Shown: in pieces, positions 16,432 to 49,654 of the stretch
Layout: each line of letters opens with the position of its first letter
Position numbering within the stretch: position 1 is the stretch's first letter
Source of the DNA: Eubacteriales bacterium
GTDB lineage: Bacteria > Bacillota > Clostridia > Oscillospirales > CAG-272
Direction: 5' to 3'
Assembly: GCA_045651165.1 (NCBI GenBank)
Contig: JAZRRX010000039.1
Location: forward strand, 111,448-175,447
Length of the DNA stretch: 64,000 nucleotides
Notes under the pieces: generated by a model
Told to the model about the DNA's origin: nothing
Database searches by the model: none
What the model saw: the letters and a program-made list of their open reading frames with translations, nothing else
Program-made: the position numbers and the translations under genes

Positions 16432-16442
16432 GAGGATTCAAT

Positions 16443-17135: not shown

Positions 17136-17157
17136 TAAAAGTTAAGGTGAAATATTT

Positions 17158-21464: not shown

Positions 21465-21479
21465 ATACAAGTCGAAAAT

Positions 21480-21555
21480 CTAGGTGTAGCTCAGCTGGGA
21501 GAGCGCTACCTTGGGGTGGTAGAGGCCGCAGGTTCAAGTCCTGTCACTTAGACCA
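21480..21555 (+). tRNA. tRNA-Pro (anticodon GGG)
   Basis: Hand-folded cloverleaf. Acceptor CTAGGTG/CACTTAG, D-arm GCTC-AGCTGGGA-GAGC, anticodon stem CTACC/GGTAG with loop TTGGGGT, T-arm GCAGG-TTCAAGT-CCTGT, encoded CCA. Confidence 0.85.
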
Positions 21556-24345: not shown

Positions 24346-24577
24346 AATGGCCTCCGTTCCTTCCAAATTACCCTTCTATAATCATATTAGTTCATATGTC
24401 AAACGCCATTTATTGAAGTTACATAATTATATCACATATCATCTGTTTTTTCAATACAAATAATCAAATGCAAATATATATTTAATTTGCAACATTTCTG
24501 CTAACAATTCCCTTTTGGCGTTCGCGGGTGGGAGAATTCGCGATATAATTAGCTTAACGTTTTATGGGAGGTTAATT

Positions 24578-24859: not shown

Positions 24860-26035
24860 ATGACAGGTTGTGTTGCGGAGCGTAATGGTGTATATTACGT
24901 TCGGTTAAGTTATTACGATAGAAATCACAAAAGGCGGGACAAATTCATAAGCACTGGGCTTTCGGGTCGTGGTGCTAAAAAGAAGGCAACTGCTATGATC
25001 GAGCAATTGATTGAAAAATACAAGTATCTTGAGAAAAGTGATCATCCATCCAAGATGGCTGACTATCTAATAATGTGGAAAAATCTTCGCAAAAGCGAGG
25101 TTGCTGAAACCACTTATGACGGATATCACACCTATATTGATAGGCACCTTGTTCCCTATTTTAGAGATCTCAATTTGAATATTCAAGATATCACTGCAGG
25201 TCATATTTTTGATTATGTCAATTATCTTTCTAATGACGGTGGCAGAAAGGATAACAAGATTGGCGGGCAATCTAACACCTCAATTAGAAAGATTATCAGT
25301 ATTCTTAGACAGGTATTTGAATATGCCGTTCTATATGGAGATATCAAAATCAACCCTGCCCTTCAAGTGCCCTTGCCCAAGAAAACCAACAAAAAAGATG
25401 AGCGTCAAGTTTTCTTGACATCCGAAGATGCTCAAAAGATGCTTGACGCTTTTCAAAACGAGGAGATTGGGCCTATTGTTTATGTAACGCTTTATTATGG
25501 ATTAAGAAAGTCCGAAGCGCTTGGTCTTCGTTGGCAAGCCGTTGATTTTGATGCTAACACTATCACGATAAATCACACTGTGGTTGGCAACGGTCATATT
25601 GTAAGAAAAGATACCACCAAGACATACACAAGCCGACGAACTTATGAGTTGCTCCCCGATGTTAAGGCGTTACTTTTAAAACTAAAAGACCAACAAGATG
25701 ACTACAAGCGCAGGCTTGGTTCAGGCTATCATATGAACGATTATATATTCAAGAATCCTAATGGCGTACCCTACCGTCCCGATAGCCTCACACGGAGTTT
25801 TAAGCGCGCCCTGGCTCGTCACGGACTTCCTCAAATGCGCTATCACGACTTGCGACATTCGACCGCCTCTATCCTTGTCGATAAAGGTTGGGACATCAAT
25901 GATATAAAGGAGTGGCTCGGTCACGCTGACATCTCAACCACGGCGAATATTTATGCGCATATTAGCCATAGAAAGAAAGTCTCGCTCGCTAAAAGCCTGA
26001 ATGGGTCGCTGAGTTTTGAGCAAAAATCTGAATAA
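24860..26035 (+). CDS. int: Tyrosine-type site-specific integrase
   Basis: ALGLRWQAVDF (Arg I), YHDLRHSTASILV (H-x-x-R), LGHADISTTANIYAH (catalytic Tyr region); 391 aa. Confidence 0.9.
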   Translation: MTGCVAERNGVYYVRLSYYDRNHKRRDKFISTGLSGRGAKKKATAMIEQLIEKYKYLEKSDHPSKMADYLIMWKNLRKSEVAETTYDGYHTYIDRHLVPYFRDLNLNIQDITAGHIFDYVNYLSNDGGRKDNKIGGQSNTSIRKIISILRQVFEYAVLYGDIKINPALQVPLPKKTNKKDERQVFLTSEDAQKMLDAFQNEEIGPIVYVTLYYGLRKSEALGLRWQAVDFDANTITINHTVVGNGHIVRKDTTKTYTSRRTYELLPDVKALLLKLKDQQDDYKRRLGSGYHMNDYIFKNPNGVPYRPDSLTRSFKRALARHGLPQMRYHDLRHSTASILVDKGWDINDIKEWLGHADISTTANIYAHISHRKKVSLAKSLNGSLSFEQKSE

Positions 26036-34835: not shown

Positions 34836-35030
34836 ATGGACAAGGTTAAAATTGGAGATACCATTAAAATCATCAAAATGGAAGGCGAACCTCACTACAC
34901 CTACCGAGAGGGTGTAGTTACTCACATCGATGACGCAGGTCAAATACACGGAACCTGGGGTGGTTGTGCTATCATTCCATGGGTTGATACTTATATAGTC
35001 TTAAACAATAACATCAAAAAAAGAACTTGA
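34836..35030 (+). CDS. Small DUF4314-like protein
   Basis: IGDTIKIIKMEGEPHYTYREGVVTHIDDAGQIHGTWGG pattern; 64 aa; 10 nt after the recombinase gene. Confidence 0.45.
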   Translation: MDKVKIGDTIKIIKMEGEPHYTYREGVVTHIDDAGQIHGTWGGCAIIPWVDTYIVLNNNIKKRT

Positions 35031-35054
35031 CCATTTGAGTCAAGTTCTTTTTTT
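35015..35054. terminator. Bidirectional terminator
   Basis: A-run, stem AAGAACTTGAC/GTCAAGTTCTT, T-run; between convergent genes. Confidence 0.8.
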
Positions 35055-35060
35055 ACCTTA

Positions 35061-35486
35061 TTAAATTAATATGCCATTACAATGATCCACCTCGTGTTGG
35101 ATGATCTGCGCTGTCCAGCCGGTGTAGGTTTTGATGCGCATTTGCATTTCAAGAGTTTGATATCGCACCTTGATGGTATTATATCGCTTGCACTTGCGTG
35201 GGCCACCGAGTAGCGACAAACAGCCCTCTTCGGTATCGTACGCGCCGTCCTTCTTGATGATTTCGGGATTCAGCATCACGGTGTACGTAGGAGCTCGTCC
35301 GCTCTCGTCGAGAAAGGCGATAATGCGCTTGCGCACACCGATCATATTCGCAGCCATACCGACACAGCTTTCTCTGTGCGCTATCAGCGTGTCGAGCAAG
35401 TCGTGTGCCACCTGCAAATCTTCTTTCGTTGCAACCTCCGACTTTCCTGCAAGAAATATCGGGTCGTGCATTAATTCCTTAATCAT
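35061..35486 (-). CDS. def: Peptide deformylase (short, divergent motif 1)
   Basis: GMAANMIG (variant of GxGxAAxQ), EGCLS, HEVDHCNG; 141 aa. Visibly more GC-rich than its neighbours. Confidence 0.85.
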   Translation of the reverse strand: MIKELMHDPIFLAGKSEVATKEDLQVAHDLLDTLIAHRESCVGMAANMIGVRKRIIAFLDESGRAPTYTVMLNPEIIKKDGAYDTEEGCLSLLGGPRKCKRYNTIKVRYQTLEMQMRIKTYTGWTAQIIQHEVDHCNGILI

Positions 35487-35520
35487 CTCTCGTTACCTTA
35501 CCGTTAATTTCTTGTACTCA

Positions 35521-36198
35521 TCAATTATTAGAATTAGCGATCAAATATTTTTTATTATCGCAATAGTCTTCCATACCTTGAATAATACCCTGTAGAAATC
35601 TAATGATTATGTCTTTAATTGACTCCAAATCAGACAAAGTAAGATCTCTCGCGCACTGACTAAAGCTTTCATCCCCATGTGCCAAAGAATTTCGCTTCTT
35701 TCTTACTTCTTCAAGCTTGTTATCGTCATCAACAACAGTATATCTAATTCTATGATCATCACAAATATGTTTGATTCGCCCTGCGTTTAAATTGCCGTTT
35801 ATGTTGAGCATTCCTTTTTCAAGAATAAAAGGGGCGCTAGTCGTAATATCATCAACGATGTCTTTTACTCTATTGGTATATGTTTTTAATTCTGTTGAAG
35901 ATGAATAAACTTGCTTAACCTTAGCATCTCTCCATATAGTTTGAAGCTCTTGAACCATATTTTTATATGTACAAGAATCATTTTTTATGGATTCATAAAT
36001 TTCCAACATCCCAGTCGATACAGTAGATTCAACCAAATTATATAACATCAAAATAAAATTGGATTTCATTATTTTGAATAGTCGTGCGTTATCTATTGTA
36101 TGTATTGAAGAATTTTCTTTATCTATTTCTACTAAAACAGAATAATAAAATTCTATCTCACCTTTTCTTTCTTCAAAAGTTTCCTTAACGTTAATCAT
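35521..36198 (-). CDS. HEPN-domain nuclease-like protein (MAE_28990/MAE_18760-type)
   Basis: RKKRNSLAHGDESF (R-x4-H HEPN motif); 8-nt overlap with the upstream DUF262 gene. Confidence 0.65.
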   Translation of the reverse strand: MINVKETFEERKGEIEFYYSVLVEIDKENSSIHTIDNARLFKIMKSNFILMLYNLVESTVSTGMLEIYESIKNDSCTYKNMVQELQTIWRDAKVKQVYSSSTELKTYTNRVKDIVDDITTSAPFILEKGMLNINGNLNAGRIKHICDDHRIRYTVVDDDNKLEEVRKKRNSLAHGDESFSQCARDLTLSDLESIKDIIIRFLQGIIQGMEDYCDNKKYLIANSNN

Positions 36199-37234
36199 TT
36201 AACTTACCCAAAAGTATATCCCTTACATACTCAATTCTACCAATTAGTTTGTTTTGATTATTACTTGCATCCGATGTTGTCAAATGCTTAAATTCTTCAG
36301 AATTTATCCAATCCACATTATCAACTGTAAGGTCCGGTTGCTCTCGCAACGCCAAAGCGACGCCAACAGATATTGCTTCAAACCTTACACGTGGGGTTGT
36401 CGAAGCATTTTGTGTTTTGGCAAATCCAAACTCGAAATTTGCATCAACAAACGCTAGCATACGAGCAAATTCTATTTGATATTGTTCTTCATTGAATGTT
36501 TCCATATTATCAATCAAGAAGTCATTCAAAAATCCATTCACCTTATGAACGAAATTTTGGTAGTTGTTTAAATAAGCAAAGAAACGAAGAATAAGTTCAA
36601 AACGTTCTTGTCTCAAATTCTTTCCAGTAGATACAGGACAAAGTCTAATGAAATCAGCATTTTCTGTACAGTTCTCAATGAAGGTAGTTAATGGACCAGG
36701 ATAGGATCCACGGCGCACCTCAGAATCAGTAGCCTTCATTCCCGAAGTGTTGATTCTATTAAACAAATCCTGTCTAACATCAGAAGTTGTCTTTTCATCC
36801 AACACAATAACTCTAAATGCTTTGTTATTGAACTTTCTTTGTTGGGCTTCGGTCAAATCCTTAAACCTAAATCCGTTAAGATATGTCAGCTTTTCTAGAT
36901 TAGAAAGCCTCAATTTATTACTAACGAATTCAACAAGAGTTTGCATTCGTTGTGCACCATCGACTATCTCAAGGCGCCCATCATCACACGCTGCAAAGAA
37001 CATAAAAGGGATAGGCAATCCCAACAAAACAGATTCAATAAACATCGACTTATTTTTAGGACGCCATACGAATTTTCTTTGATATCCTGGAATGAAAAAG
37101 TCTTGCTTGTTAAATTTATCAACCAAATGTTCGATAGTATAATCTTTTGTATCGTATTCAATCTGTTTTTGAAATTCTTTAATTTGAAGCTCGGCTCTTT
37201 CTATTAATTCAGATGTTATTTTAATTCTCGGCAT
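36191..37234 (-). CDS. DUF262 (ParB/GmrSD N-terminal-like) protein
   Basis: PGYQRKFVW and IVDGAQRMQTL (DGQQR-like). Start set to the ATG at 37234 behind GGAGG, overlapping the methyltransferase stop. Confidence 0.75.
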   Translation of the reverse strand: MPRIKITSELIERAELQIKEFQKQIEYDTKDYTIEHLVDKFNKQDFFIPGYQRKFVWRPKNKSMFIESVLLGLPIPFMFFAACDDGRLEIVDGAQRMQTLVEFVSNKLRLSNLEKLTYLNGFRFKDLTEAQQRKFNNKAFRVIVLDEKTTSDVRQDLFNRINTSGMKATDSEVRRGSYPGPLTTFIENCTENADFIRLCPVSTGKNLRQERFELILRFFAYLNNYQNFVHKVNGFLNDFLIDNMETFNEEQYQIEFARMLAFVDANFEFGFAKTQNASTTPRVRFEAISVGVALALREQPDLTVDNVDWINSEEFKHLTTSDASNNQNKLIGRIEYVRDILLGKLND

Positions 37235-38276
37235 TATTGTTAACCTCCACAATATGATTTAGAATTGATTCTCCAATGATTTCGCCTAAACGCACAGGAA
37301 CTGCGTTTCCGATATGTCTTGCAATATCACTAAAAACAAAATTAGTTTCCGGATTAATGAAATTATAATCTGCAGGAAAAGTCTGCAATAATGCTCCTTC
37401 TCTCAAAGACAGAGCTCGATCTTGCTCCGGGTGTCCATATCTGCCCGTGCCATAATTATAAAACTGTGTTGTTATAGTTGGGCCAATCTGTTCCCAAGTC
37501 ATTCTACCATAAACAGAGCAATATGTTTTGCCGCTCTCCTTCTTATGGCATTCGCAGCGTAAATCCTCTGGCCAATCTCGCCAAGATCCTCCTGGCCTAG
37601 AGTGCTGAATTCTTTTTAGATTTAGTGCGTTCAACCCAGCGGCTCTATGCATAGGATCATTTGGATCTGTTTCTCCTGCAGCTATTTGAGGTAGATTTTC
37701 AATAAAATCTCTTACATGAATATCTGCGCTATCGTGCGTAGGTTCAATGATTCTTATCTCACCCAACAACGATCCAACCAAAACGAAACGACGTCGTGTT
37801 TGTGGAATTCCGTAATCAGGACAATAAATAACTTTTGCATCAATTTGATATCCTAAACGTTCTAAAATAGCAAGAAATTCTTGATATACACCTGTTTCTT
37901 TTATTTGAGGTACATTTTCCATCGCAATTACAGATGGATTTGTCTCTTCAATCAATCTTCCAAATTCTAACAACAAATCATACTTGTCGTCCTGTTCATT
38001 TGCATCTCTTAGTTTAAATCTCATCTGTGAGAACGGTTGGCAAGGAGCGCATCCAACTAATATTCTAGTTGCATTTTCGTCATATAGTGCGGCTATTTCC
38101 TCACCTGTAACTTCACGAATATTTTTCAAATGATAATCCACATTATTATTGTGTTCGTAAGTGAATTGGCATGTTGCATCAATGTCAAATCCTGCTATCA
38201 CATTGAGGCCTGCATCAAGTAAACCACGTGTCAATCCTCCAACGCCACAAAATAAATCCACAACTTGTATTGGCAT
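37221..38276 (-). CDS. DNA (cytosine-5)-methyltransferase
   Basis: DLFCGVGG, APCQPFS, ENVPQ, QTRRRF, GNAVPV. Confidence 0.9.
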   Translation of the reverse strand: MPIQVVDLFCGVGGLTRGLLDAGLNVIAGFDIDATCQFTYEHNNNVDYHLKNIREVTGEEIAALYDENATRILVGCAPCQPFSQMRFKLRDANEQDDKYDLLLEFGRLIEETNPSVIAMENVPQIKETGVYQEFLAILERLGYQIDAKVIYCPDYGIPQTRRRFVLVGSLLGEIRIIEPTHDSADIHVRDFIENLPQIAAGETDPNDPMHRAAGLNALNLKRIQHSRPGGSWRDWPEDLRCECHKKESGKTYCSVYGRMTWEQIGPTITTQFYNYGTGRYGHPEQDRALSLREGALLQTFPADYNFINPETNFVFSDIARHIGNAVPVRLGEIIGESILNHIVEVNNNAEN

Positions 38277-38277
38277 C

Positions 38278-38670
38278 TTATTTCCCTCTTAATAATATTA
38301 TTGTTTGATAAAATACAGTTATTGCCTCCGAGGCAAACTCTGCAGTTCCCGCGCCATACTTGTCGATGTTTTTCTTGAATCGCTCATCAGCTACGTACAT
38401 CTTTCCAAGCCCTACGAGAATCTCATCTGTGCAAGTGTAGTAGTTCTCCGTGATATGTGACTGAAGCATGGCAACAAGTGCCTGCGCTTCATCAGAATCG
38501 GCACTCACTCCACTATCCTTGCACACAGCAAACTCGGCAAATATGGCCATCAAATCCTCATTTGCCTCAGCCCACTTCTCTTTTGTGTAATTCTTTGTCT
38601 TTTGCTCGTACTCACGGTAGGGTGAGGTGTTGCCATAGCGCTCACGAGCTTCCGTCTCGTAGTTTTTCAT
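38278..38670 (-). CDS. TipAS antibiotic-recognition domain protein (no MerR HTH)
   Basis: ARERYGNTSPYREY ... GLGKMYVADERFKKNIDKYGAGTAEFASEAI. Start set to the ATG at 38670, since the longer track ORF overlaps the upstream gene. Visibly GC-rich. Confidence 0.75.
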   Translation of the reverse strand: MKNYETEARERYGNTSPYREYEQKTKNYTKEKWAEANEDLMAIFAEFAVCKDSGVSADSDEAQALVAMLQSHITENYYTCTDEILVGLGKMYVADERFKKNIDKYGAGTAEFASEAITVFYQTIILLRGK

Positions 38671-38677
38671 ATCTTTC

Positions 38678-39361
38678 TTATTTAGATCTATCTTTAGTAA
38701 CAAAAACAAACATAACATCAATTACACTTTGAAGATCATCTATAAATATCTCAATATTGTTACGTTTTCTACTACTCATTAATCCGTAAACACTACGTAT
38801 TATCCAAATAATAGCATATATCAAAAACACAATGGCAATCAACCCCAAAACATATCCAATAATATCTTCAATGTTAGTCTGACTTGAAATAAACGTAGTA
38901 ATTATAGCAAGCATTAATGGAATAATCAAAGTTTGCATCCATTTGTCAATTTTATCACTTTGCTGCCTTTTGAGTGCATCTTGCTTTTCCAAATCGTGCG
39001 CTAGGCGTGATTTGATTAATTCTATATCTTCTTGTGTAGTTATAGAGTATTCGGACAACCAATTGTATAAATCGTGAGCCGATGTTCTAAAATCATCATA
39101 ATGTTCGCGACTATACTTAATTTTCCACTTCTCTTGAACCCAATAAAGTATAAAAGCAACAGTTGCTTCTATAAAAGTAAGTATATAAAACCACTCGTTA
39201 ATACCAATAGCAAAAATATTAATAATACTTGCTACAAAGCATAAAACAGCCAATATTAGTAGCACAATAATATACCACGGTATTTTCTTGATAGCATTAG
39301 TAAATGATCCACTATGGTCTTTTTGATATTTCAAATAACTATTTAGCAAATGATACTCCAC
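38678..39361 (-). CDS. Four-TM membrane protein, uncharacterised
   Basis: Two N-terminal and two C-terminal hydrophobic helices flanking a charged helical segment (SRLAHDLEKQDALKRQQSDKIDKW). Confidence 0.55.
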   Translation of the reverse strand: MEYHLLNSYLKYQKDHSGSFTNAIKKIPWYIIVLLILAVLCFVASIINIFAIGINEWFYILTFIEATVAFILYWVQEKWKIKYSREHYDDFRTSAHDLYNWLSEYSITTQEDIELIKSRLAHDLEKQDALKRQQSDKIDKWMQTLIIPLMLAIITTFISSQTNIEDIIGYVLGLIAIVFLIYAIIWIIRSVYGLMSSRKRNNIEIFIDDLQSVIDVMFVFVTKDRSK

Positions 39362-39397
39362 TATGAATCTCCTTTTTGTTATGTTATTAAGAAACCA

Positions 39398-40336
39398 TTA
39401 TACGATAGTTTCCTTTATTTTTTCAGCAATCCTTCTAATTACAGGCACAACAACACTATTCCCACATTGCTTGTATGCACTTGCCATAGGTATCTTAGGG
39501 AAACGATATTCTTTAGGAAAACCTTGTAAGGCCAAGCACTCATATGGCGTAATTTTTCTGATACCGCAATCATCTCTAATTATTGGAACCCTATCAGGAA
39601 AAGTTCCCATATTGGCAGTCAGTGTTGGGCATACGTAATGCGCCTTTCTTGATACGCCCGAATCGTAAATCTTATATAGCGCATCTTTATTGTCAATAAT
39701 TCTTTGCAAATCCTCATAATAAACACTACTATCTGTGTAATAATAGCTCTTATCGTGTTTGGCGTTTCTTACCAATATGTCATTCAACTTGGTTGTTAAC
39801 TTAATCTTTTCAGGAAACTCAAATCTATCACACTGGTCGTTTTCAAGAAATGCCACAATGTAGATGCGTGTACGATGCTGAGGTATATTACTATACTCTA
39901 TCGCATCCATGACTCTATATTTGAACGTATAACCATAAGGAACAAGTGCATTATATATGGTTAAGAATGTCTTTCCATCGTCATGTTCTAATAGATTTGC
40001 AACATTTTCAAGGAAGATGACCGGCGGACGCTTGTCCTTAACAATTCGCGCAATCTCAAAGAACAAGTTTCCGCGCGGATCATCGAATCCTTTTTGCTTG
40101 CCTGCTATAGAGAACGGTTGGCATGGAAAGCCGGCAACAAGCACGTCAAAATCGGGGATATCCTCACTTTTGACACTTCTAATATCGCGTTCAACTAAGT
40201 GCTCTCCGCCGAAATTATGACGATATGTTCTTGCGGCATCACGATCAAATTCGTTTGCCCAAACAATTTCAAATCCTGCTTGCTGGAAGGCTAAATCTAT
40301 TCCCCCAATGCCGCTAAATAGGCTACATACTCTCAT
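39398..40336 (-). CDS. DNA (cytosine-5)-methyltransferase
   Basis: SLFSGIGG, FPCQPFS, ENVANL, QHRTRIY, GNSVVVPV. Confidence 0.9.
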   Translation of the reverse strand: MRVCSLFSGIGGIDLAFQQAGFEIVWANEFDRDAARTYRHNFGGEHLVERDIRSVKSEDIPDFDVLVAGFPCQPFSIAGKQKGFDDPRGNLFFEIARIVKDKRPPVIFLENVANLLEHDDGKTFLTIYNALVPYGYTFKYRVMDAIEYSNIPQHRTRIYIVAFLENDQCDRFEFPEKIKLTTKLNDILVRNAKHDKSYYYTDSSVYYEDLQRIIDNKDALYKIYDSGVSRKAHYVCPTLTANMGTFPDRVPIIRDDCGIRKITPYECLALQGFPKEYRFPKIPMASAYKQCGNSVVVPVIRRIAEKIKETIV

Positions 40337-41604
40337 TTCTCTACAGCTTTTCCTATATCTTCAATAAGTTTCGTAATATCCTCAGTGCAATTTCCTTGCG
40401 ACCAAACAGAAATCAAGTGTTTAGTATCAATTAAAAATGCACATATACGTGTATGAGATAACGCATCGTTTCTCCAATTAGCTTCTGAATATCCGATATA
40501 TTCAAGGTCGGAATCATATCCAAATGGATTATTTGCTCTATTATAAGGCATTACAAATGCATTGTACACATATGTTATATTCTCTTTCTTTTGCAAATTA
40601 CAAATTATATTATCACCATACGTAATTTGCTTTTGAATAGAGGTTGTTGTCGGCAAATCGCTTTCATTACCCGTTGTTCCGAAACGATAAAACTTAGCAT
40701 CAAGAACATATGCTACCTTCTCATCTGTGCTAGAATCGCTAGAAATCGGCTCTAACCTAATGGTGTCAGGTCTCAAAGAAGAAGCATCTTTAGGAGCGTA
40801 TGCGTTTTTCTTCAAGTACCATTTGGCATTAGGATTATACTTAGTTATGTCTGTAACATTACTGAAAACATAATCCACCATACGCTCGTATACATAATGA
40901 TACTTATCCACACCATACACAATCTCTCTCGTTCTATCAGAGTCATCAACGCCTGTAAGAACTCGCAACATGTGATTTAAACGAATCTTTTTTACATCAT
41001 CAAAGGTACGCGTGAGTTCTGTTTTAATAGCTCGGATATACTTTTTCAGTACAGAGTCCACAGTTCTTGCAACAAAGACACTCTTTTCGTTTAATCCGAA
41101 CAACCACCCGATTTTACGAACAGAATCGAACACACACCACTTATGTGCTTCGGTTATAATGTCGTCGCAATCGTTGCGCACTTCAACAATAACGTTATTA
41201 TAAATAATATTACCATTAGAGATGATCGGCTGCGTTTCTAATGTCTTTTTCCAATTTACCTTTCCCTTACCGTTGGTACGGTAGATTTTTTCACTATTTC
41301 GATAGTATCCATTAGAAAGATAATCTCTAATAATCCACAGATATGACCTTATGGCGAACTGATCGTTTTGAGCAACACCATTGTCGTTGTTGAAGCTGAT
41401 ATTAGCTTTACTTTTGGCCAACGAAATTGTTCGGATGATATTTACTACATCATGTCTAAAAGCCTTTTTATCTTCTTGTTTTGCTAAATGATATGATTCA
41501 GGGTAATGAAAATGAATTTCTCCGTTTCTTATGCGAAGACCGACAAAAGAGTTTTGTTCTTCATTGGTAACCGAATGAAGAATTATCTTCTTATCATCAT
41601 TCAT
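40333..41604 (-). CDS. LlaJI-type / McrC-like restriction endonuclease subunit
   Basis: Overlaps the McrB-like gene by 8 nt. AYVLDAKFYRFG ((D/E)xK-type core); size and position match an LlaJI R2 / McrC partner. Start set to the ATG at 41604 behind GAGGG. Confidence 0.65.
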   Translation of the reverse strand: MNDDKKIILHSVTNEEQNSFVGLRIRNGEIHFHYPESYHLAKQEDKKAFRHDVVNIIRTISLAKSKANISFNNDNGVAQNDQFAIRSYLWIIRDYLSNGYYRNSEKIYRTNGKGKVNWKKTLETQPIISNGNIIYNNVIVEVRNDCDDIITEAHKWCVFDSVRKIGWLFGLNEKSVFVARTVDSVLKKYIRAIKTELTRTFDDVKKIRLNHMLRVLTGVDDSDRTREIVYGVDKYHYVYERMVDYVFSNVTDITKYNPNAKWYLKKNAYAPKDASSLRPDTIRLEPISSDSSTDEKVAYVLDAKFYRFGTTGNESDLPTTTSIQKQITYGDNIICNLQKKENITYVYNAFVMPYNRANNPFGYDSDLEYIGYSEANWRNDALSHTRICAFLIDTKHLISVWSQGNCTEDITKLIEDIGKAVEK

Positions 41605-44203
41605 TGTTTCCCTCTTCTTCTGCACTTACGGCAGCTCTAGCCTCAAATATACCTGTTTTGAAAACGCCTACTCCACCTGTTTTATATGCGTCAATAAGGT
41701 TTTCTAAAGTGTCATACGGATTGAAGAAGATACCGTGATCAAGCTTAGCTACATCGCTCCACAGGTAGTCAAATACCTTATATGCAAACTTTTCAGCGTC
41801 ATTACTTGCCAAAAGATTTTCTTTTACAAAGAACGCTCCAATCTGCTTATCCTCATTGACCTGAAGATCTTCCAAATGCCTTGCAATACATTTATTGATA
41901 CTTGTAACAAACTCTTCCCAAGTGTACTGTATCATTCCCGGAACAGGCATAGCTTTAAATTTGCAATTTTTAAAGGAATTCTTAATCTTTTCCTTATCCC
42001 AACGACGAACAAATGCGGTATCTAACGTATAGACATTTTGGTCACTTGTGTTCATAGTTGCAAAGATATCCATATTACCAGGAATTTTAATTTCGCTGAA
42101 AGTATAACGCTTCTTTTCCCCATCAACTATAAACTCATAAGCATTGAGATAATCTATCATGCTGACATTGACAATCCCATATTCACTGATGCTGTTTTCA
42201 TCTCTATCCAAAAGTTGGAATATGTCTCCGAAAATGGCAGGAGCATTTCCTCTGTTGATTTCTTCAATAACAAGAGCAACCTTTTTACTAGGATTACTGA
42301 TTGCCTGAATCAATGCAAGAGTGAACGGACCGGGGTTGAATATGTACTCAACAGTATCTTTCTCTCCGTTTCTTCCTTTAACCACCTTAGGAAGAATCTG
42401 ACCAACAAAATCAGTATTAGAATAATCCTGATAGAAAGTGGTTCGAATTACTCTTTCATTACTATATGGGTCAACGTATTCCTTGGTAACTTTATCCTTA
42501 CCTAAAATATCGTGCTCAATGTGATACGATTTTCCACAACCAGGTGTACCAAAGAATATCTTGTTGATTCCTGATCCAACGGTAGTCTTATAGTCAAAAT
42601 CAGTTGCCGGAATTACCTGTTCGGGCTCATGGAAATGAATACCATACTCATTATCTCTTACAGACTTATAGATGCTAATTCCCTTATTAACTTCTACATG
42701 ATAAGAATTTTGTAATCTAGAAGCTTTAACTATTTGAGTTGCGGTATATCCTTTACTAATGATTATCGCGGCATACTTGAAGCCAAACATATGAATAGCA
42801 GTTGTCTTGTTATCTGCAGCATCATACATATCAGAAAGGATTTCTGCCAACTCTTCAACGGTATAATCTTTTCCGATATCATCCGCCTCAAGTTCTATAT
42901 CTTCTTCAATTAACAAAGATTCATCTTTGACGTATGTGCCATTCAATAAATCGTTAACTGCCGATTTATAATCGTTGAGTCTGAAAACAGACATAGCAGC
43001 ACCCAAAGAGTTTTGGAAGACTTCCGACAAATCGCTCTTGCGAATATCCTTTTTAAGCCACTCAACATCTCTAACGTTAACGTAATCCGGATCTTGGTTT
43101 GCGTTTTGTGCATTATCAAAGTAATAATCTGAAGCTATGCGACCAATATGACAAGTGTCACCATTAGAGAATACAACGTAGTCGCCAATTTGCATTTCCT
43201 TAACAAAACGCCAAATCTGACCCAAATCCTGAGCCTTTTTTCTTACTTTTTCGTTAGGATAGGCAGATTCATATCTTGAATCAAGATCTTCCCTCGTGGT
43301 AATGTCGGATATGTCCCCTATCTTAGACCAACCAATACAGATGTGAGGCTTAGTATCAGATAAAGCATCATTCTGAAGTTTGATATGCATACCGTAAAGA
43401 TCATGAACAAAAACATCATCGCACAACGAATTATTGGAATCACCAGTCGAATTTTCAATATCCATATAATTCTCATATGAAGATCTATTAGTCACATAAT
43501 TTTGATTAGGATCTGGTGACCAAAAACGAGTGTATGTCAATATATCAAACAATACCGCTTTATTATCTGTGGTCAGATTATCATGCTCTATGTATAGCTC
43601 TTGACGTTCATTTTCAGATATACATCCCGAATACAAAAGGAGCTTTACCATTTCACGAATTTGACGGTCTTCATGTTTCCAAATTCTTTTATCAGGATCT
43701 ATCTCTACTGTTGTAGGTAGGGTTCCTGTTTTTCTGTATTCTATAATCTGCTGTGCCAACTCTACGATATTAGGAGTTTTACTTTTTGCAACTACACTGT
43801 TATAGAAAAAGAAATGCAGTATTTCATCACGTGTCAAATGAGCAGCACCCGGGTATAACATATGCATGTTGTAAAGAACTTGTAAAACTAATCTCATGGG
43901 TGCAATGGTAATACCATCATTAAATGCATCCAACATAGACTCTTGGGTGCGTGGATTGGGAAATTGGAATTTTTTAATAAAATTCAACACAACTTTTCTT
44001 ACATTCCCATTCTGACACTCCTTGGCACAATTGCTTGTTGATGTTAGATTGAAATAGAAGCCAAGCGTCTTCATATTGTTATTTTCACTTTTATCTTCAC
44101 TGGCAGATGGAACTGTATCTGTAACAAAGCATGTGCCAGCTTTTGTTAAGGCAGACTGCAAGCTAGATATTCTCAAATCATTCGTAAATAAATAGTGATA
44201 CAT
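41597..44203 (-). CDS. McrB-like AAA+ GTPase restriction subunit with long N-terminal extension
   Basis: FFGTPGCGKSY (Walker A), LVIEEINRGNAPAIFGDIFQLLDR, ATMNTSDQNVYTLDTAFVRRW; about 520 aa precede the NTPase core. Confidence 0.85.
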   Translation of the reverse strand: MYHYLFTNDLRISSLQSALTKAGTCFVTDTVPSASEDKSENNNMKTLGFYFNLTSTSNCAKECQNGNVRKVVLNFIKKFQFPNPRTQESMLDAFNDGITIAPMRLVLQVLYNMHMLYPGAAHLTRDEILHFFFYNSVVAKSKTPNIVELAQQIIEYRKTGTLPTTVEIDPDKRIWKHEDRQIREMVKLLLYSGCISENERQELYIEHDNLTTDNKAVLFDILTYTRFWSPDPNQNYVTNRSSYENYMDIENSTGDSNNSLCDDVFVHDLYGMHIKLQNDALSDTKPHICIGWSKIGDISDITTREDLDSRYESAYPNEKVRKKAQDLGQIWRFVKEMQIGDYVVFSNGDTCHIGRIASDYYFDNAQNANQDPDYVNVRDVEWLKKDIRKSDLSEVFQNSLGAAMSVFRLNDYKSAVNDLLNGTYVKDESLLIEEDIELEADDIGKDYTVEELAEILSDMYDAADNKTTAIHMFGFKYAAIIISKGYTATQIVKASRLQNSYHVEVNKGISIYKSVRDNEYGIHFHEPEQVIPATDFDYKTTVGSGINKIFFGTPGCGKSYHIEHDILGKDKVTKEYVDPYSNERVIRTTFYQDYSNTDFVGQILPKVVKGRNGEKDTVEYIFNPGPFTLALIQAISNPSKKVALVIEEINRGNAPAIFGDIFQLLDRDENSISEYGIVNVSMIDYLNAYEFIVDGEKKRYTFSEIKIPGNMDIFATMNTSDQNVYTLDTAFVRRWDKEKIKNSFKNCKFKAMPVPGMIQYTWEEFVTSINKCIARHLEDLQVNEDKQIGAFFVKENLLASNDAEKFAYKVFDYLWSDVAKLDHGIFFNPYDTLENLIDAYKTGGVGVFKTGIFEARAAVSAEEEGNNE

Positions 44204-44204
44204 A

Positions 44205-45419
44205 TTATAACTCTCCTATCAACTCAAAAATTGCATTGGCGATTGCTTTTGCCAACATTGGAGGAACTGCATTTCCAATCATCTGATATGCTCCTCCTCT
44301 GCTAGCAACAAATTCAAAATCGTCTGGGAAGGATTGTAATCGTGCGGCCTCTCGCACAGTTATTGTACGTTGCTGCTTTGGATCATAATGAATAAAGCGA
44401 TTACCATCTTTATATAAATGTGCGATTATTGTTGTGCTAGGTTCATCCGGGGCAAGAACATGATATCTATGAATAGGCGACTTAGAACCAATTTTCTGTT
44501 CATAAAGCTCACTAATTTTTTTGCTATCATATTCGAATTTGCCAGAAGAAACATCTTCAGCCAATAACCTAAATGTATCCATATCACGCAAGTTGCTATA
44601 ACGGGGAGTATGCCATGAAACATTTGATATGGGAGTAGAGTGAGAGACTCTCTTGCTATGATGTTCCAAATCAAAATATGGTTCACATGGTGGTAAATCA
44701 CCGATAGCCTCTTGTACTGTAACCTTTTTTTGACCTTTATATTTCGGCAACAACTCAGTATAAAATTTATTCAGCAACGATTGAATATCTGTGTTCAAAT
44801 CCTTTCTGACACCAACAATTACTACTCGATTGCGGTTTTGTGGTACATTATAATCACTCGCATTTACCACAGCTCGATGCAAATCATCTATAATCTCATA
44901 GCCAATTCCATCAAATCCGCTCTTGATAAGATCTGTTATTGGAGTTCCATTAGGAGTTGCGCTTAAGATCCCCGGTACGTTTTCGAAAACAAACAGTAAG
45001 GGGCGATAACGATTTACCACGCTTAAATAATGTTCAAATAAGTAATTGCGATAATCGTTTTTCATGCCATTTTCGTCTCTAACTCGTCCAGCAATCGAAT
45101 ACGCCTGGCATGGTGGTCCTCCAATGATAATATCAATACCACCCACCGCATTAACATAATGATCTAATCCTTTATTAGAGCCATACTCACAGTCATTCCA
45201 GCCGCCAAATAACTCTGCTTCACGCTGTATGTCAAAACGCATTACACTTTCATTAGCATGGGAAATATTCCAATGTGTCAGTAATCTGTGTCTCAATGTA
45301 TCTATTTGAGGTCCTAACCACTCAACTGCCGCAACCTCGCTATAATGACCAGTTTGCAAAAAACCCTCTGTCAAACCGCCACATCCAGCGAAAAGGTCTA
45401 TCATTTTAATCTTTGACAT
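44205..45419 (-). CDS. DNA (cytosine-5)-methyltransferase
   Basis: DLFAGCGG, GPPCQAYS, FENVPG, QNRNRVV, GNAVPPML. Confidence 0.9.
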   Translation of the reverse strand: MSKIKMIDLFAGCGGLTEGFLQTGHYSEVAAVEWLGPQIDTLRHRLLTHWNISHANESVMRFDIQREAELFGGWNDCEYGSNKGLDHYVNAVGGIDIIIGGPPCQAYSIAGRVRDENGMKNDYRNYLFEHYLSVVNRYRPLLFVFENVPGILSATPNGTPITDLIKSGFDGIGYEIIDDLHRAVVNASDYNVPQNRNRVVIVGVRKDLNTDIQSLLNKFYTELLPKYKGQKKVTVQEAIGDLPPCEPYFDLEHHSKRVSHSTPISNVSWHTPRYSNLRDMDTFRLLAEDVSSGKFEYDSKKISELYEQKIGSKSPIHRYHVLAPDEPSTTIIAHLYKDGNRFIHYDPKQQRTITVREAARLQSFPDDFEFVASRGGAYQMIGNAVPPMLAKAIANAIFELIGEL

Positions 45420-45420
45420 T

Positions 45421-46491
45421 TTATTCTTTCTCCAGATAAGGAATTAATTGTTGTGCAACTACATAACCCAACATAGGAGGTACCGCATTGCCAACTTGAC
45501 AATATTGCTCAGCCTTGCTACCATAAAATATAAAATCGTCAGGGAAACTTTGCAATCTAGCACTCTCTCGAACCGTAGGAATTCTATTCCATTTGTAATG
45601 AAAATGAGAACGATGACCAGTGTTTATTGTAAGAGACGGCTTTTTACTATGATATCTAGTTAGTGCTTCGTGATACTTAAATCTTGCACTCAATTCAGGA
45701 GGTAACGCTTTGTAATTTTTGCCTTCCGGAATAAGCTTGAGTAACGCAACAGTCTTTTCCTCATGAATGCTTCCAATATGATTATATATTTTTTTGGAAT
45801 TACATCTCATTTTCTCTTGGTATGAACTTAACGGAGGACATTCATAGTCTTGAACTTCTTCTCCATATATTCCCTCTAGTGCCGGTAAATCTCCAATGGC
45901 TTGCTCGCATGTTATATATTCTTCAGGTGCAAAGCGAGGACTAGGAAATTCAAAATTGATTTTCGAATCTAACAATCCGACAAAAAATACTCGTTTACGA
46001 ATTTGTGGAACGCCATAATCGGGGGCATATAAAATCTTGGCATTCATTCGATAACCCAGAGCTGAGAAATCTTCTATAATTCGTTTGGCACCAATACCAT
46101 CGTTAGTTTGAATCATTCCAGGAACATTTTCCAAAACCACGGCTTTAGGTTGAAGAATTTGTGCCAATTTTACCATCGCTAAATAAAGCGAATTACGTTT
46201 ATCGTTCATATCACGTGGTCCTGCGATAGAAAAACCTTGACAGGGGGGGCCACCCACAAGAACATCAAGATCAATATTTCTCTCGCGTAAGTAATCCACA
46301 ATTACATTGATATTATCATGATTAAATAAATCTAATTTCATCGCTTCGGCCGAACCGTGATTTGCTTTAAATGTACGCAAAGCTGCATCATCAAAATCAA
46401 CGCCTAAAACCACATCATATCCGGCATCCAAAAAGCCTCGCGACAAACCGCCCGCGCCAGAAAACAAATCTACAACTTTTAATTTGCTCAT
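45421..46491 (-). CDS. DNA (cytosine-5)-methyltransferase
   Basis: DLFSGAGG, GPPCQGFS, LENVPG, QIRKRVF, GNAVPPML. Confidence 0.9.
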   Translation of the reverse strand: MSKLKVVDLFSGAGGLSRGFLDAGYDVVLGVDFDDAALRTFKANHGSAEAMKLDLFNHDNINVIVDYLRERNIDLDVLVGGPPCQGFSIAGPRDMNDKRNSLYLAMVKLAQILQPKAVVLENVPGMIQTNDGIGAKRIIEDFSALGYRMNAKILYAPDYGVPQIRKRVFFVGLLDSKINFEFPSPRFAPEEYITCEQAIGDLPALEGIYGEEVQDYECPPLSSYQEKMRCNSKKIYNHIGSIHEEKTVALLKLIPEGKNYKALPPELSARFKYHEALTRYHSKKPSLTINTGHRSHFHYKWNRIPTVRESARLQSFPDDFIFYGSKAEQYCQVGNAVPPMLGYVVAQQLIPYLEKE

Positions 46492-46502
46492 ATCAATCCA
46501 CC

Positions 46503-46718
46503 TCAGCCTTCTTTGGAAGGAATTATATCCATGATCTCATCCACTGTACAGCCCAATGCAGTACATATCTTCACCAATACATCACTGGATACAGTAGCCC
46601 CATCTTTTTTCATCTTCGCAAGCGTAGTAGGACTAATTCCTGCCTGTGCAGCAAGGTCTTTATTCTTAATCTCGCGATCAATCATTAATTTGAATAGTTT
46701 CTTATAGCTAGCAGCCAT
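46503..46718 (-). CDS. XRE-family HTH protein (candidate R-M controller)
   Basis: 71 aa; KNKDLAAQAGISPTTLAKMKKDG HTH; first gene of the methyltransferase/restriction block. Confidence 0.75.
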   Translation of the reverse strand: MAASYKKLFKLMIDREIKNKDLAAQAGISPTTLAKMKKDGATVSSDVLVKICTALGCTVDEIMDIIPSKEG

Positions 46719-46749: not shown

Positions 46750-46771
46750 ATATACTATAGTAAAAGTATAT
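46750..46771. promoter_or_regulatory. Candidate controller-protein operator
   Basis: ATATACT-N8-AGTATAT inverted repeat containing the ACTATAGT palindrome; 32-53 nt upstream of the HTH gene start. Confidence 0.35.
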
Positions 46772-46892
46772 CACAACTTGCGTCATAAATCAACATTATT
46801 TGAAAAATAATTCGCGATGTTGAAATATTTTTCACTATAGCCATATGTATTTCATAACGGCAAATCGACTACTTGAAGCTGTAAGTTCAGGC

Positions 46893-46935
46893 TGTTACGC
46901 AATCACGCAAACTTTGTTACGCAGGCTGTTACGCA
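46893..46935 (+). repeat. Triple TGTTACGCA module B
   Basis: TGTTACGCA at 46893-46901, 46915-46923 and 46927-46935, plus a partial TCACGCA at 46903-46909. Spacing of 22 and 12 nt matches module A. Confidence 0.6.
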
Positions 46936-47029
46936 AGGCTATTTGATAAAGCAAAAGCGTACCATCAGAATCGTTTAGATTCTGTGGCACGCTCTGTCTA
47001 AAAGCTGTGCGATAAAGCTGGAAAAGGCG

Positions 47030-47103
47030 ATCTAGGTGTAGCTCAGCTGGGAGAGCGCTACCTTGGGGTAACTATGACCGCAAGTTCAAGAGTTTGACCA
47101 GCT
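47030..47103 (+). pseudogene. tRNA-Pro-derived att remnant: perfect 5' half fused to a divergent 3' half
   Basis: 47030-47069 is 40/40 identical to 21478-21517. The downstream AACTATGACCGCAAGTTCAAGAGTTTGACCAG cannot pair with the anticodon or acceptor stems, though GACCGCAAGTTCAAG resembles the T-arm GGCCGCAGGTTCAAG. Confidence 0.8.
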
Positions 47104-47224
47104 GAATTACACCTAATATATCGTTTATCCTATGTATTTTATCCTATTTATTAAGATTATTTTATTACTATTCCCTGCTACGCAATTTGAGTTATCCATT
47201 CCAAAAGAATTCAATAGTAATATC

Positions 47225-47255
47225 AAAAAAGACGACCGCGTGGTCGTCTTTTTTT
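47225..47255. terminator. Bidirectional terminator after the Fic gene
   Basis: A-run, stem GACGACC/GGTCGTC, T-run; overlaps the Fic stop codon. Confidence 0.75.
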
Positions 47256-48141
47256 AGTATTTGATTCTATAATAATCTAAACGCAATTTGAAGTTATCCT
47301 GCGCTGAAAGACAGGTATCAACGAGGTATCCGCGCTCACGGGTCCATTCTTTAAGTCCGCGATAATAAAAGAGCTTGTGCTTCTCGTCAATGATAAATGG
47401 TACGATATTATTCTTCAAGCACTCCTTGAACATAATCAATCGACCGACACGACCGTTTCCGTCTTGGAACGGGTGAATTTTCTCAAAACGCACGTGAAAT
47501 TCAATTATATCCTCAAGTGTTACGTTCTCAATCGCGTTGTACCAAGCCAAAAGGTTTTTTATTTCTTTTGAAACTTCTTCCGGCAGGGTAGTATCCATAC
47601 CGCCAACTTCATTTGGCAGTTTCTTGTATTCACCTACCGCAAACCAATCCTTGCGACTATCACTTGTGCCACTCTTGAGCAAAGAATGAAGCTGCTTAAT
47701 CACAGTTTCACTCAAGCTCGCATTTGCCTTGTCGATGATAAAATCAATACAACGGAAGTGGTTAGTTGTTTCAATGATATCGTCAACGCGCACCGCCTCA
47801 TCAACAATTCCGATGGTATTTGTTTCAAAAATGTATCTCGTCTGGTCGTGGGTCAAACGGCTTCCCTCAATGTGATTGGAATTGTAAGTCAAATCAACTT
47901 GCACTCTATGATAAATGCCGCCACGAAGTTTCGTCTTCTTTTCTTCCTTCAAAATATCAAGCAAAGTGTTGGAAGCATCTTCCCTTTTCTTGCGCACGGG
48001 TTTTTCGGCATCTTCTGGAATCTTCCAAGTCTTGCCCTCAAGGATTGCCCCTGCAACACGACCTTCCGCGCAATAATTTCTCACTGCGCGCTCGGACATC
48101 CCCCACTTTTTCGCAATTTGGACAACTGAAATGTAATTCAT
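47254..48141 (-). CDS. Fic-family protein with N-terminal HTH
   Basis: HPFQDGNGRVGRL (canonical Fic motif) and N-terminal VVQIAKKWGMSERAVRNYCAEGRV HTH. Confidence 0.9.
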   Translation of the reverse strand: MNYISVVQIAKKWGMSERAVRNYCAEGRVAGAILEGKTWKIPEDAEKPVRKKREDASNTLLDILKEEKKTKLRGGIYHRVQVDLTYNSNHIEGSRLTHDQTRYIFETNTIGIVDEAVRVDDIIETTNHFRCIDFIIDKANASLSETVIKQLHSLLKSGTSDSRKDWFAVGEYKKLPNEVGGMDTTLPEEVSKEIKNLLAWYNAIENVTLEDIIEFHVRFEKIHPFQDGNGRVGRLIMFKECLKNNIVPFIIDEKHKLFYYRGLKEWTRERGYLVDTCLSAQDNFKLRLDYYRIKY

Positions 48142-48350: not shown

Positions 48351-49193
48351 TTACTCCTCTGTTATTGCTTCAATTGCATCAGTTTCCACTTTAGTTTCAA
48401 GTGTTTTTACCCTTAAATACTCAGACTCAATAGTATCTTTTATTGAATCAACATCATACGCAACAGCTATCCCGCTATTTTCTTGCAAAACTTGCATTGT
48501 TTTACCGGTTTTTTTGCTAATAAGTTCTTCCATATATGGAATGTATCCTGCTATTATACCCACTAAACGTGTAGCATTGTAATGTTTAGTTCCTTGAAGA
48601 TGATTTGATTCAATTCTATTTATTATAGGACTACCTGAACTACCAGGAAAATTCTGTATATCCAACAAATAGCCGTTTTCTCCATATGGTTCTTTTATTT
48701 TGGAAACACATCCCATTCTACATAATGGTATTTTAGAATCTACTCCTACTAATCCAGAAGGAAATCCTAACATATATACAATAGTCCCTTCAACAACATC
48801 GTGTTCTATCATTTGTTCACGTGTTAACGCATGTTCATCCAAAACAAATGCACTAACGCTTCCGATAGTCTTATTTAGCACAGAACCATTAAGTAATATG
48901 CATCCAACATCAGCTGTTGGATGAACAGAAAAAATATCATTACCATTTCCATCTTGCAAATCTAAGAGTAAATCTTTTGCATCAGTTTTACCGGAAATGT
49001 TAAAACGAAGGAATACATTAGTTAATCGAGATTCTAACACATGTTTATTTGTAATTAAAAATGCATTATACACTCCATACTCATTTTTTCTAACAACAAT
49101 AAACCCTGTTGCTATCCACTTCTTTTCATTATTTTGATCATTTATACCGATTGCCACAACGGCATCGCTGAAAAATTGGGGAATGATTGCCAT
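48351..49193 (-). CDS. Trypsin-like (S1 family) serine protease, cytoplasmic
   Basis: LITNKHV (His) and FPGSSGSPIINR (Ser); no signal peptide; GGAGG RBS. Confidence 0.75.
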   Translation of the reverse strand: MAIIPQFFSDAVVAIGINDQNNEKKWIATGFIVVRKNEYGVYNAFLITNKHVLESRLTNVFLRFNISGKTDAKDLLLDLQDGNGNDIFSVHPTADVGCILLNGSVLNKTIGSVSAFVLDEHALTREQMIEHDVVEGTIVYMLGFPSGLVGVDSKIPLCRMGCVSKIKEPYGENGYLLDIQNFPGSSGSPIINRIESNHLQGTKHYNATRLVGIIAGYIPYMEELISKKTGKTMQVLQENSGIAVAYDVDSIKDTIESEYLRVKTLETKVETDAIEAITEE

Positions 49194-49631: not shown

Positions 49632-49654
49632 ATTGTATAGCTTTATATTTTTTG

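Follow-up and report, generated by a model that had tools for sequence, protein, structure and literature searches.

The 64-kb window analyzed here (64,000 nucleotides of contig JAZRRX010000039.1, from a Eubacteriales bacterium) contains, at 35061-46718 on the minus strand, a compact block of genes that is probably a composite island, in which two independent methylation-based immune systems and three genes of mobile-element type lie together at the end of a probable 25.5-kb element bounded by tRNA-Pro repeats. The first of the two systems is a restriction-modification (R-M) cassette of six genes; the second is a triad of a C5-cytosine methyltransferase, a DUF262 protein and a HEPN protein. 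An initial annotation of the same DNA had divided the block into three stacked modules. The stacking is retained here, and the division is replaced by two systems with three and one methylases, respectively, in place of three methylase-effector pairs.

In the open reading frame (ORF) listing of the window the block consists of twelve consecutive minus-strand ORFs over 11.7 kb, in agreement with the twelve co-directional genes described initially. Families were assigned by Pfam and PADLOC profile searches of the window ORFs, and the gene identities as first read were confirmed, including those of the four C5-cytosine methyltransferases (M1 to M4): all four match PF00145, with E-values ranging from 1e-56 to 2e-89, and all four keep motifs I, IV (PCQ), VI (ENV), VIII (QxRxR) and X. 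Relatives of the source organism are Clostridia from the gut or rumen. Related genomic, metagenomic, IMG/VR and phage loci are referred to below by L-numbers (L001, L008, L091-L098, L100-L102, L106-L117, L126-L128 and L130). The start of the DUF262 gene was corrected to ATG 37234, giving a protein of 347 aa that matches its closest homologues, and that of the restriction subunit gene R2 to ATG 41604, as in L092/L093; the TipAS gene probably starts at ATG 38670, from its ORF translation. With the corrected starts, the junctions measure +11, +1, +1, -8, -4, +36, +7, +1, -14, -8 and +34 nt. The range of -32 to +36 nt given initially therefore keeps its upper end, and the 32-nt overlap, which came from the longest-ORF reading of the M4/DUF262 junction, becomes one of 14 nt. 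The GC content is mosaic: the deformylase gene, at 0.49, stands far above its neighbors and above the whole window (0.365), the TipAS gene reaches 0.45, and the 4-TM and HEPN genes are at 0.30. A megablast search of the block against plasmid and phage DNA gave no match.

The three genes of the triad (38276-35521) are as follows.

37221..38276, minus strand: M4, C5 methyltransferase of the triad (PF00145, 1.1e-56)
36191..37234, minus strand: DUF262/ParB-like NTPase protein, 347 aa, predicted DNA sensor (Pfam GmrSD_N, 4.4e-29)
35521..36198, minus strand: HEPN protein of the MAE_28990 family, 225 aa, predicted RNase effector (Pfam HEPN_MAE_28990, PF18737, 1.6e-20)

The HEPN protein contains an RNSLAH (Rx4H) motif and also matches HEPN_RiboL-PSP (PF18735; 1.7e-07, 31.8 bits with a cut-off of 28.4). 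The DUF262 protein has QRxxxW, DGxQR and FxxxN motifs, and GmrSD_N is its sole Pfam domain, with no DUF1524 present. Its PADLOC matches are NsnA (7.9e-62) and PD-T4-2_A (PDLC04027, 8.4e-36 over residues 54-342), and a DUF262 profile searched against the PDB gave a weak match to BrxU (7p9k). To survey the triad, one genome per species was taken with the DUF262 protein as query, and the resulting 80 loci, at 39-73% identity, span Bacillota, Spirochaetota, Fusobacteriota, Pseudomonadota, Acidobacteriota, Planctomycetota and others. Linkage was scored by script in the 56 loci with enough flanking sequence: an M4-type methylase adjoins DUF262 in 54 of them, a HEPN gene lies directly downstream of DUF262 in 55, and both partners are present beside it in 53. 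Two of the three loci scored as incomplete are threshold artefacts, judged from their printed coordinates, so that the linkage of the triad is at least 53/56, which bears out the methylase plus DUF262/HEPN module of the initial annotation. The gene order is M-DUF262-HEPN, with DUF262-HEPN-M in a proteobacterial branch, and small integrative elements, of Gemmiger formicilis among others, carry the triad too.

Conservation was measured over 60 aligned triads. The R and H of the HEPN motif, the QR..W and DGxQR motifs of DUF262, and the PC (with the catalytic Cys) and ENV motifs of the methylase are invariant in all 60. The target-recognition region of the methylase (residues 172-262) has a median identity of 52%, compared with 46% for the N-terminal catalytic core, and it is still 56-58% identical where the HEPN protein is only ~20% identical; conservation beyond both the core and the HEPN partner argues for one fixed specificity throughout the M4 family. 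The target-recognition region of M4 and the C-terminal domain of DUF262 co-vary only weakly (r = 0.21) because the former hardly varies. Relatives of the DUF262 protein, ~42% identical, occur on plasmids of E. coli, Salmonella and Klebsiella, and a P2-like phage (Peduovirus P2_4B2, L130, 140-3041) carries a DUF262-HEPN pair with a convergent M4-type methylase. The methylase of this phage aligns with M4 as two overlapping high-scoring segment pairs, which may mean a frameshift; its record annotates only a 235-aa product.

An operon of MAE_28990-HEPN, ParB (DUF262) and DNA methylase was predicted by Anantharaman et al. 2013, DUF262 and HEPN domains are both carried by PD-T4-2 (PMC10952713), and PD-T4-2 protects E. 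coli against T4 (PMC9519451). In the literature searched, no paper characterizing the mechanism of the three-gene triad was found. As Anantharaman et al. name the partner a ParB nuclease, the DUF262 protein could itself cut or nick DNA, with HEPN serving merely as a back-up toxin or regulator; the second system would then be a conventional DNA-targeting R-M system, for which a strict methylase linkage is typical. We regard this as unlikely, since the protein is without DUF1524/HNH, the cutting domain in GmrSD, BrxU and SspE (PMC10952713), and since the invariance of the HEPN Rx4H motif (60/60) argues for a catalytic role. Our own proposal, which is tentative and open to doubt, is that the triad is an R-M-like system with an RNase as its restriction arm, in which the absence of a fixed 5-methylcytosine (m5C) mark would be passed by the ParB-like NTPase to the HEPN RNase. 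In the likeliest mechanism, M4 would mark a fixed host motif, the DUF262 protein would sense incoming DNA that is without the mark and would activate, or act with, the HEPN RNase, and the action of the latter would halt the infection, probably to the detriment of the cell. Should this be correct, the triad would couple epigenetic discrimination of self from non-self directly to abortive infection; the m5C motif of the M4 family would be the same across phyla, judged by the conserved target-recognition region; and relatives without a methylase, such as PD-T4-2 in E. coli, could be derived forms that use a host methylase or another cue.

The other system, at 46718-39398, comprises the six genes at the 5' end of the block.

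46503..46718, minus strand: XRE/Cro-C1-type helix-turn-helix (HTH) protein, 71 aa, likely C-protein-like controller (Pfam HTH_26, 2.5e-19)
45421..46491, minus strand: M1, C5-cytosine DNA methyltransferase, 356 aa (PF00145, 5.9e-67)
44205..45419, minus strand: M2, C5-cytosine DNA methyltransferase, 404 aa (PF00145, 3e-59; PADLOC MTase_II, 5e-168)
41597..44203, minus strand: R1, 868 aa (Pfam HTH_73 and AAA_5; PADLOC REase_II, 2.3e-180)
40333..41604, minus strand: R2, LlaJI-R2/McrC-like PD-(D/E)xK nuclease subunit, 423 aa (Pfam RE_LlaJI, PF09563, 2.2e-32)
39398..40336, minus strand: M3, HhaI-like C5 methyltransferase, 312 aa (PF00145, 2.4e-89)

Pfam, motif and fold evidence agree with the LlaJI-like module recognized initially. 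Two co-oriented m5C methyltransferases precede a McrB-like R1 with a specificity N-terminus and an RE_LlaJI PD-(D/E)xK R2, and the small 5' HTH protein is conserved with the cassette, its orthologue heading related cassettes in L092-L094, L097, L126 and L128. Homologues of R2, 72-92% identical, invariably adjoin an R1. The whole cassette recurs in L126/L127 and in L128 as XRE (70%)-M1 (82%)-M2 (76%)-R1 (52-67%)-R2-M3 (77%), with the M1 and M2 orthologues of L126 and L128 in the same positions as in the window; in L126 a McrC-type gene of PF10117 occupies the R2 position and M3 is retained. The six-gene cassette of L126, which comes from another metagenome, is surrounded (1-5083 and 12908-18538) by genes for Macro, NERD, OLD-type ATPase/TOPRIM, RecQ-like helicase and CD-NTase proteins. 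As the defense genes around it are different ones, the cassette moves between defense islands.

The position of M3 is the point at which our division of the block departs from the earlier one. M3 starts 4 nt before the stop codon of R2, and this 4-nt overlap suggests translational coupling from the sequence. Orthologues of M3, 75-78% identical including the 165-285 region, lie directly 3' of R2 in L008, L091-L096, L126 and L128, and the 4-TM gene is absent from that position in all nine informative loci (9/9) that have an M3 orthologue after R2. From the overlap and from its position after R2 in nine loci, M3 is a member of a six-gene XRE-M-M-R1-R2-M cassette. M3 is missing from the more distant cassettes of L097 (62% identity) and L100 (30%, with the classic M-M-R1-R2 order). 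The initial annotation had instead placed M3 with the adjacent membrane protein as an orphan methylase module, between a LlaJI-like module and the M4 plus DUF262/HEPN module and possibly with one promoter and controller for all three. Such a parsing is in keeping with the gene order and tight spacing, and with the single conserved upstream promoter with XRE and the one strong terminator described below. It is nonetheless improbable, as the R2 overlap and the nine loci separate M3 from the 4-TM gene, as elsewhere the 4-TM and TipAS genes follow an unrelated restriction system with no adjacent M3 orthologue, and as the 4-TM protein is without a match to a defense family; the orphan module was accordingly abandoned.

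The cassette varies upstream of M3. In L093 there is a single methylase of 363 aa together with an unrelated R1 N-terminus, and L092, L008 and L098 have an M2-like methylase and a 240-aa protein upstream. The 240-aa protein, which is conserved and has no Pfam or PADLOC match, is encoded between the upstream methylase and R1 (L092, 7070-7792; L008, 2744-3466), and L092 carries in addition an NgoFVII-like nuclease gene upstream. M3 aligns with M.HhaI over its full length (6e-61), and since the recognition loops differ, no specificity can be inferred for M3 from this match. Motif counts in 64 kb are too few for a test of site avoidance.

The remaining three genes of the block flank the triad.

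38678..39361, minus strand: membrane protein with four transmembrane segments (4-TM), 227 aa, GTG start, four hydrophobic segments
38278..38670, minus strand: TipAS-only protein, 130 aa (Pfam TipAS, 1.8e-41, whole domain)
35061..35486, minus strand: short peptide deformylase homologue (PDF), 141 aa (Pfam Pep_deformylase, 6.6e-30)

The 4-TM protein matches no curated Pfam family above threshold, and 21 homologues of it were found. The TipAS protein is an antibiotic-recognition domain without the MerR HTH. The deformylase homologue keeps EGCLS and HEVDH; its motif 1 is CVGMAANM, with M in place of Q, and the protein ends right after motif 3. Comparison with the PADLOC models returned matches for M2, R1 and the DUF262 protein and none for the 4-TM, TipAS and deformylase proteins. 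All three genes recur in other company. In L101/L102, the series HTH-GIY-YIG-like-M-NgoFVII-Z1 is followed by 4-TM (73% identical)-TipAS-two small genes-141-aa PDF, one of the two small insert genes being weakly HEPN-like; the order 4-TM-TipAS-[insert]-PDF is common to the window and these loci, and the insert and the upstream restriction system differ. In L008, R1-R2-M3-M4-DUF262-HEPN-PDF occurs without the 4-TM and TipAS genes and is followed by another methylase and a HATPase/Ymh protein, and in L128 the cassette is followed by HNH-DndB-PDF. A deformylase homologue of 137-141 aa is a recurrent last gene after variable defense cassettes (L008, 10797-11210; L101, 8089-8514; L128, 10507-10920; L106-L117). 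Homologues 70-91% identical to it lie among variable genes on a dozen IMG/VR contigs, with serine and tyrosine recombinases nearby that are related to those of the window. From this distribution, the 4-TM, TipAS and deformylase genes look like backbone (anchor) or cargo genes of an element, outside both defense systems, around which defense cassettes would be exchanged. Roles as effectors were considered for the three proteins and rejected, owing to their recurrence beside unrelated cassettes and to the lack of a PADLOC match.

The recurrence of these genes also bears on whether the twelve form one interdependent system, in which, for example, the cassette methylases would protect from DUF262-HEPN or the deformylase would be an immunity or accessory factor for HEPN. 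The order R1-R2-M3-M4-DUF262-HEPN-PDF is shared by the close relative L008, L001 has M3-like-M4-DUF262-HEPN, and the deformylase repeatedly ends such arrays. However, in ~80 loci the triad is found with no R1 or R2, no adjacent M3-type methylase and no deformylase, the cassette occurs without the triad in L092-L094 and L126, the deformylase homologues have unrelated neighbors, and the M3-like methylase of L001 comes after a FokI-type nuclease. Moreover, the order shared by L008 and L128 is not independent evidence, as both loci belong to close relatives. A single twelve-gene system is thus highly improbable, and two separate systems beside element genes are preferred.

The likely target of the LlaJI-type cassette can be approached through its restriction subunits. 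R1 is composed of a BpuJI-like N-terminal DNA-recognition domain (residues ~1-250), a beta-rich middle domain (~262-425), HTH_73 and a McrB-type AAA+ GTPase (~545-850), and its sequence shows the Walker A (GTPGCGKS), EEINR and MNTSD motifs. Searched against the PDB, a profile built from R1 homologues matched E. coli McrB (4.8e-59 over residues 522-839). An AlphaFold (AF2) model of R1, built with 18 homologues, has a mean predicted local distance difference test (pLDDT) score of 82; Foldseek searches with it found YdiS of the B. subtilis BsuMI restriction complex (9e-18) as well as McrB hexamers, and the N-terminal ~280 residues matched the DNA-bound BpuJI recognition domain (2vla/5hnh; ~1e-7, target template-modeling scores of 0.60-0.63). 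Sequence searches of the PDB with the N-terminal half of R1 and with R2 gave no match. R2 carries a PD...DAK motif at residues 286-311. BpuJI recognizes the asymmetric sequence CCCGT, and by analogy the BpuJI-like fold hints that the R1 target site is asymmetric. LlaJI itself consists of two m5C methylases, an R2 nuclease and an R1 in which one half is unique and gives specificity and the other is a McrB-like GTPase (PMC1459862), and it restricts unmethylated DNA (PMC1459862). For the six-gene cassette we infer a corresponding course of events: behind the XRE controller come the methylases M1 and M2, R1 would read a specific, probably asymmetric, sequence through its BpuJI-like N-terminal domain, its McrB-type GTPase would power translocation and assembly, R2, as a McrC-like PD-(D/E)xK nuclease, would cut unmethylated DNA, and M3 would be a third methylase, probably coupled to R2 in translation. 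That R1-R2 is instead a Type IV, methylation-dependent, McrBC-like nuclease whose neighboring methylases are unrelated or serve other purposes, as the clearly McrB-like GTPase, the PF10117 McrC-family partner in L126 and the uncharacterized beta-rich middle domain might allow, is the least probable reading of all, because the R1 N-terminus is a sequence-specific BpuJI recognition fold and not a methyl-reader, M1, M2 and M3 form with R1 a unit that moves together, as in LlaJI (PMC1459862), and beside a Type IV enzyme co-resident cognate methylases would be self-toxic.

Candidate signals for transcription of the block are found at its two ends.

46765..46793, minus strand: candidate operon promoter, TTGATT-N17-TG-n-TATACT, with an extended -10 element (consensus scan and alignment)
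35015..35055, minus strand: strong intrinsic-terminator-like hairpin, 18-bp stem and T run (terminator scan and sequence reading)

The candidate promoter lies ~45 nt upstream of the XRE start codon, and its -35 and extended -10 elements and the ribosome-binding site before XRE are conserved when the cassettes of L092-L094 are aligned with it. Inspection by eye for palindromic C-box operators showed an inverted repeat of 6 nt across the -10 element of the window; its conservation in L092-L094 is not evident. The hairpin directly after the deformylase gene is the sole strong minus-strand terminator of the block. No convincing internal minus-strand terminator was found by the scan, merely 5-6-bp stems within genes, as the initial annotation had also reported. 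At the 4-TM gene, the ribosome-binding site and GTG start are conserved with L101, and no promoter traveling with this gene was detected, since the hexamers at 39426-39397 are not conserved in L101. One transcript running from the promoter before XRE as far as the terminator at 35015 is plausible, as it fits the spacing and the absence of strong internal terminators, and the twelve genes may perhaps be read through in this way. The 15 ORFs that lie to the right of 47.1 kb all share the minus strand, however, so that this orientation is the local norm there and co-orientation is weak evidence for an operon. As the triad stands apart from any LlaJI-type cassette in ~80 other loci, it must have its own expression signals there.

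The block ends next to a decayed tRNA copy, and the following features define the putative island.

21478..21555, plus strand: intact tRNA-Pro(GGG) with the left 40-nt repeat copy, probable left attachment site (ARAGORN, Rfam)
24860..26035, plus strand: tyrosine integrase of the putative island (Pfam Phage_integrase, 3.4e-25, and Phage_int_SAM_3)
47030..47105, plus strand: degenerate tRNA-Pro(GGG) copy, probable right attachment site (direct-repeat search)

A perfect direct repeat of 40 nt, ATCTAGGTGTAGCTCAGCTGGGAGAGCGCTACCTTGGGGT, is present at 21478-21517 and 47030-47069, with a spacing of 25,552 nt. The left copy is the 5' half of tRNA-Pro(GGG), and only this copy is called by ARAGORN and Rfam; the right copy forms the start of a decayed tRNA, which has lost 7 nt from its T-arm and is flanked by the cassette promoter on one side and by the terminator of the neighboring Fic gene on the other. 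Direct tRNA repeats therefore surround a segment with an integrase, and a 25.5-kb island bounded by the tRNA-Pro repeats, of which the defense block is the right-hand 11.7 kb, is probable from these sequence features. Upstream of the XRE promoter, at 46890-46950 on the minus strand, there are three close copies of GCGTAACA, extending to TTGCGTAACAGCCTG, in the interval that separates the decayed tRNA copy from the cassette promoter; these copies might serve as arm-type sites of the integrase or as binding sites of a regulator.

Several points weigh against the composite reading and were set beside the evidence for it. For the island, the integrase is 3.3 kb from the repeat, and duplication of the 5' half of a tRNA is less usual than that of the 3' half. 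For transcription, the operon structure is drawn from consensus scans, and promoter-like sites number 63 compared with 54 +/- 7 in shuffled sequence; since they are not above the shuffled expectation, the scan cannot locate internal promoters. For the cassette, the target-recognition region of M3 is ~75% identical while the R1 N-terminus and the upstream methylases are swapped (L093, L092/L008), and a constant M3 is hard to reconcile with a role as cognate protector of a variable R1 specificity. M3 could serve as a third protective enzyme or as a broad "safety" methylase, or it could be a hitch-hiker. For the triad, a DUF262-HEPN pair examined on an E. coli IncF plasmid, whose HEPN gene is annotated "MAE_28990/MAE_18760 family HEPN-like nuclease," is without an adjacent methylase; the known DUF262 enzymes GmrSD, BrxU and SspE recognize modified DNA (PMC12065111); and both the RNase activity of HEPN and the sensing of unmethylated DNA are steps that we infer.

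Finally, the surroundings of the block were inspected. Between the tRNA and the integrase lie genes for a 504-aa PIN_12 protein (21692-23206) and a 380-aa protein (23224-24366), which may be a further toxin or defense pair. Just outside the right repeat are a Fic-domain protein (47254-48141), which is the PADLOC candidate PDC-S04 (1e-114), and a trypsin-like protein (48351-49193), which is the PADLOC candidate PDC-S45 (4e-22); with these two outside the repeat, defense-candidate genes continue beyond the block. The intergenic region at 49327-49651 holds at least 5 copies of a ~29-nt unit, TCAGCGnnnnGTTTTTAGTACnnnnnCGG, 42-96 nt apart, together with a 110-nt duplication, and an Rfam search of this array returned no family. 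The large serine recombinase at 59105-60238, probably what is left of another element after truncation, has Recombinase, Zn-ribbon and DUF4368 domains and lacks the catalytic Resolvase domain at its N-terminus. The initial annotation had remarked that no Vsr-type mismatch endonuclease accompanies the four methylases, and this holds: tblastn of the window with an unverified E. coli Vsr query and a scan for the GCFWH motif found no Vsr homologue, and the Vsr Pfam family had no match among the 42 window ORFs scanned, which include, for the region from 21.5 to 47.2 kb, all 21 ORFs of at least 100 aa that are not contained in larger ORFs. That Vsr is absent is uninformative and unremarkable.

Every component of the block falls into a known kind, and in this sense the block is a textbook defense island and a clean natural example of cassette swapping around mobile-element anchor genes. 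Its first system resembles LlaJI of Lactococcus lactis pNP40 in the co-oriented m5C methylases, the R1 with specificity and McrB-like halves and the RE_LlaJI PD-(D/E)xK R2, and it resembles BsuMI of Bacillus subtilis in that the fold of R1 is closest to the YdiS model. It differs from LlaJI in having six genes rather than four, an XRE-type controller in front, a BpuJI-like R1 N-terminus, and a third, HhaI-like methylase that overlaps the end of R2 and stays constant while the R1 N-terminus and the upstream methylases vary. This recurrent six-gene, three-methylase version of the LlaJI/McrBC type raises the question of why a constant third methylase is kept beside restriction subunits of variable specificity.

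The second system matches the operon predicted by Anantharaman et al. 2013 in its three adjacent, co-oriented components and in a HEPN protein with PF18737 and the Rx4H motif, and nothing essential differs; what is new is the quantified linkage, the invariant catalytic residues and the conserved target-recognition region of the methylase. As in PD-T4-2 (Vassallo et al. 2022), a DUF262 protein that lacks DUF1524 precedes a HEPN protein from the PF18735/PF18737 group, and the homology of the former to PD-T4-2_A covers its full length. Unlike PD-T4-2, which PADLOC models as two genes (A and B), it has a strictly linked C5 methylase, and the PD-T4-2_B model of PADLOC did not match the HEPN protein of the window even at E <= 1, Pfam PF18735 being all that the two share; its DUF262 protein is also only ~42% identical to the versions on enterobacterial plasmids and P2 phages. 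With Menshen it shares the best PADLOC match of the DUF262 protein, to NsnA, for which a layout of ParB-DUF262 and C-terminal DNA-binding domains has been described (PMC12065111). Assignment to Menshen (NsnABC) was rejected, the neighbors being a C5 methylase and a HEPN protein, with no NsnB ABC-ATPase or NsnC effector. Given the unmatched PD-T4-2_B and the missing NsnB and NsnC, neither the PD-T4-2 nor the Menshen name strictly applies. Like GmrSD, BrxU and SspE, the protein has an N-terminal DUF262 NTPase with DGxQR and QRxxxW, and its profile weakly matches BrxU; membership of the GmrSD/BrxU Type IV group was rejected, as the DUF1524 HNH nuclease domain is absent from its 347 aa. Its linkage to a methylase suggests the sparing of modified self DNA and not an attack on modified DNA. 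Widespread, strictly linked and with its catalytic residues intact, the triad is, on its sequence features, a candidate for a methylation-gated RNase abortive response.

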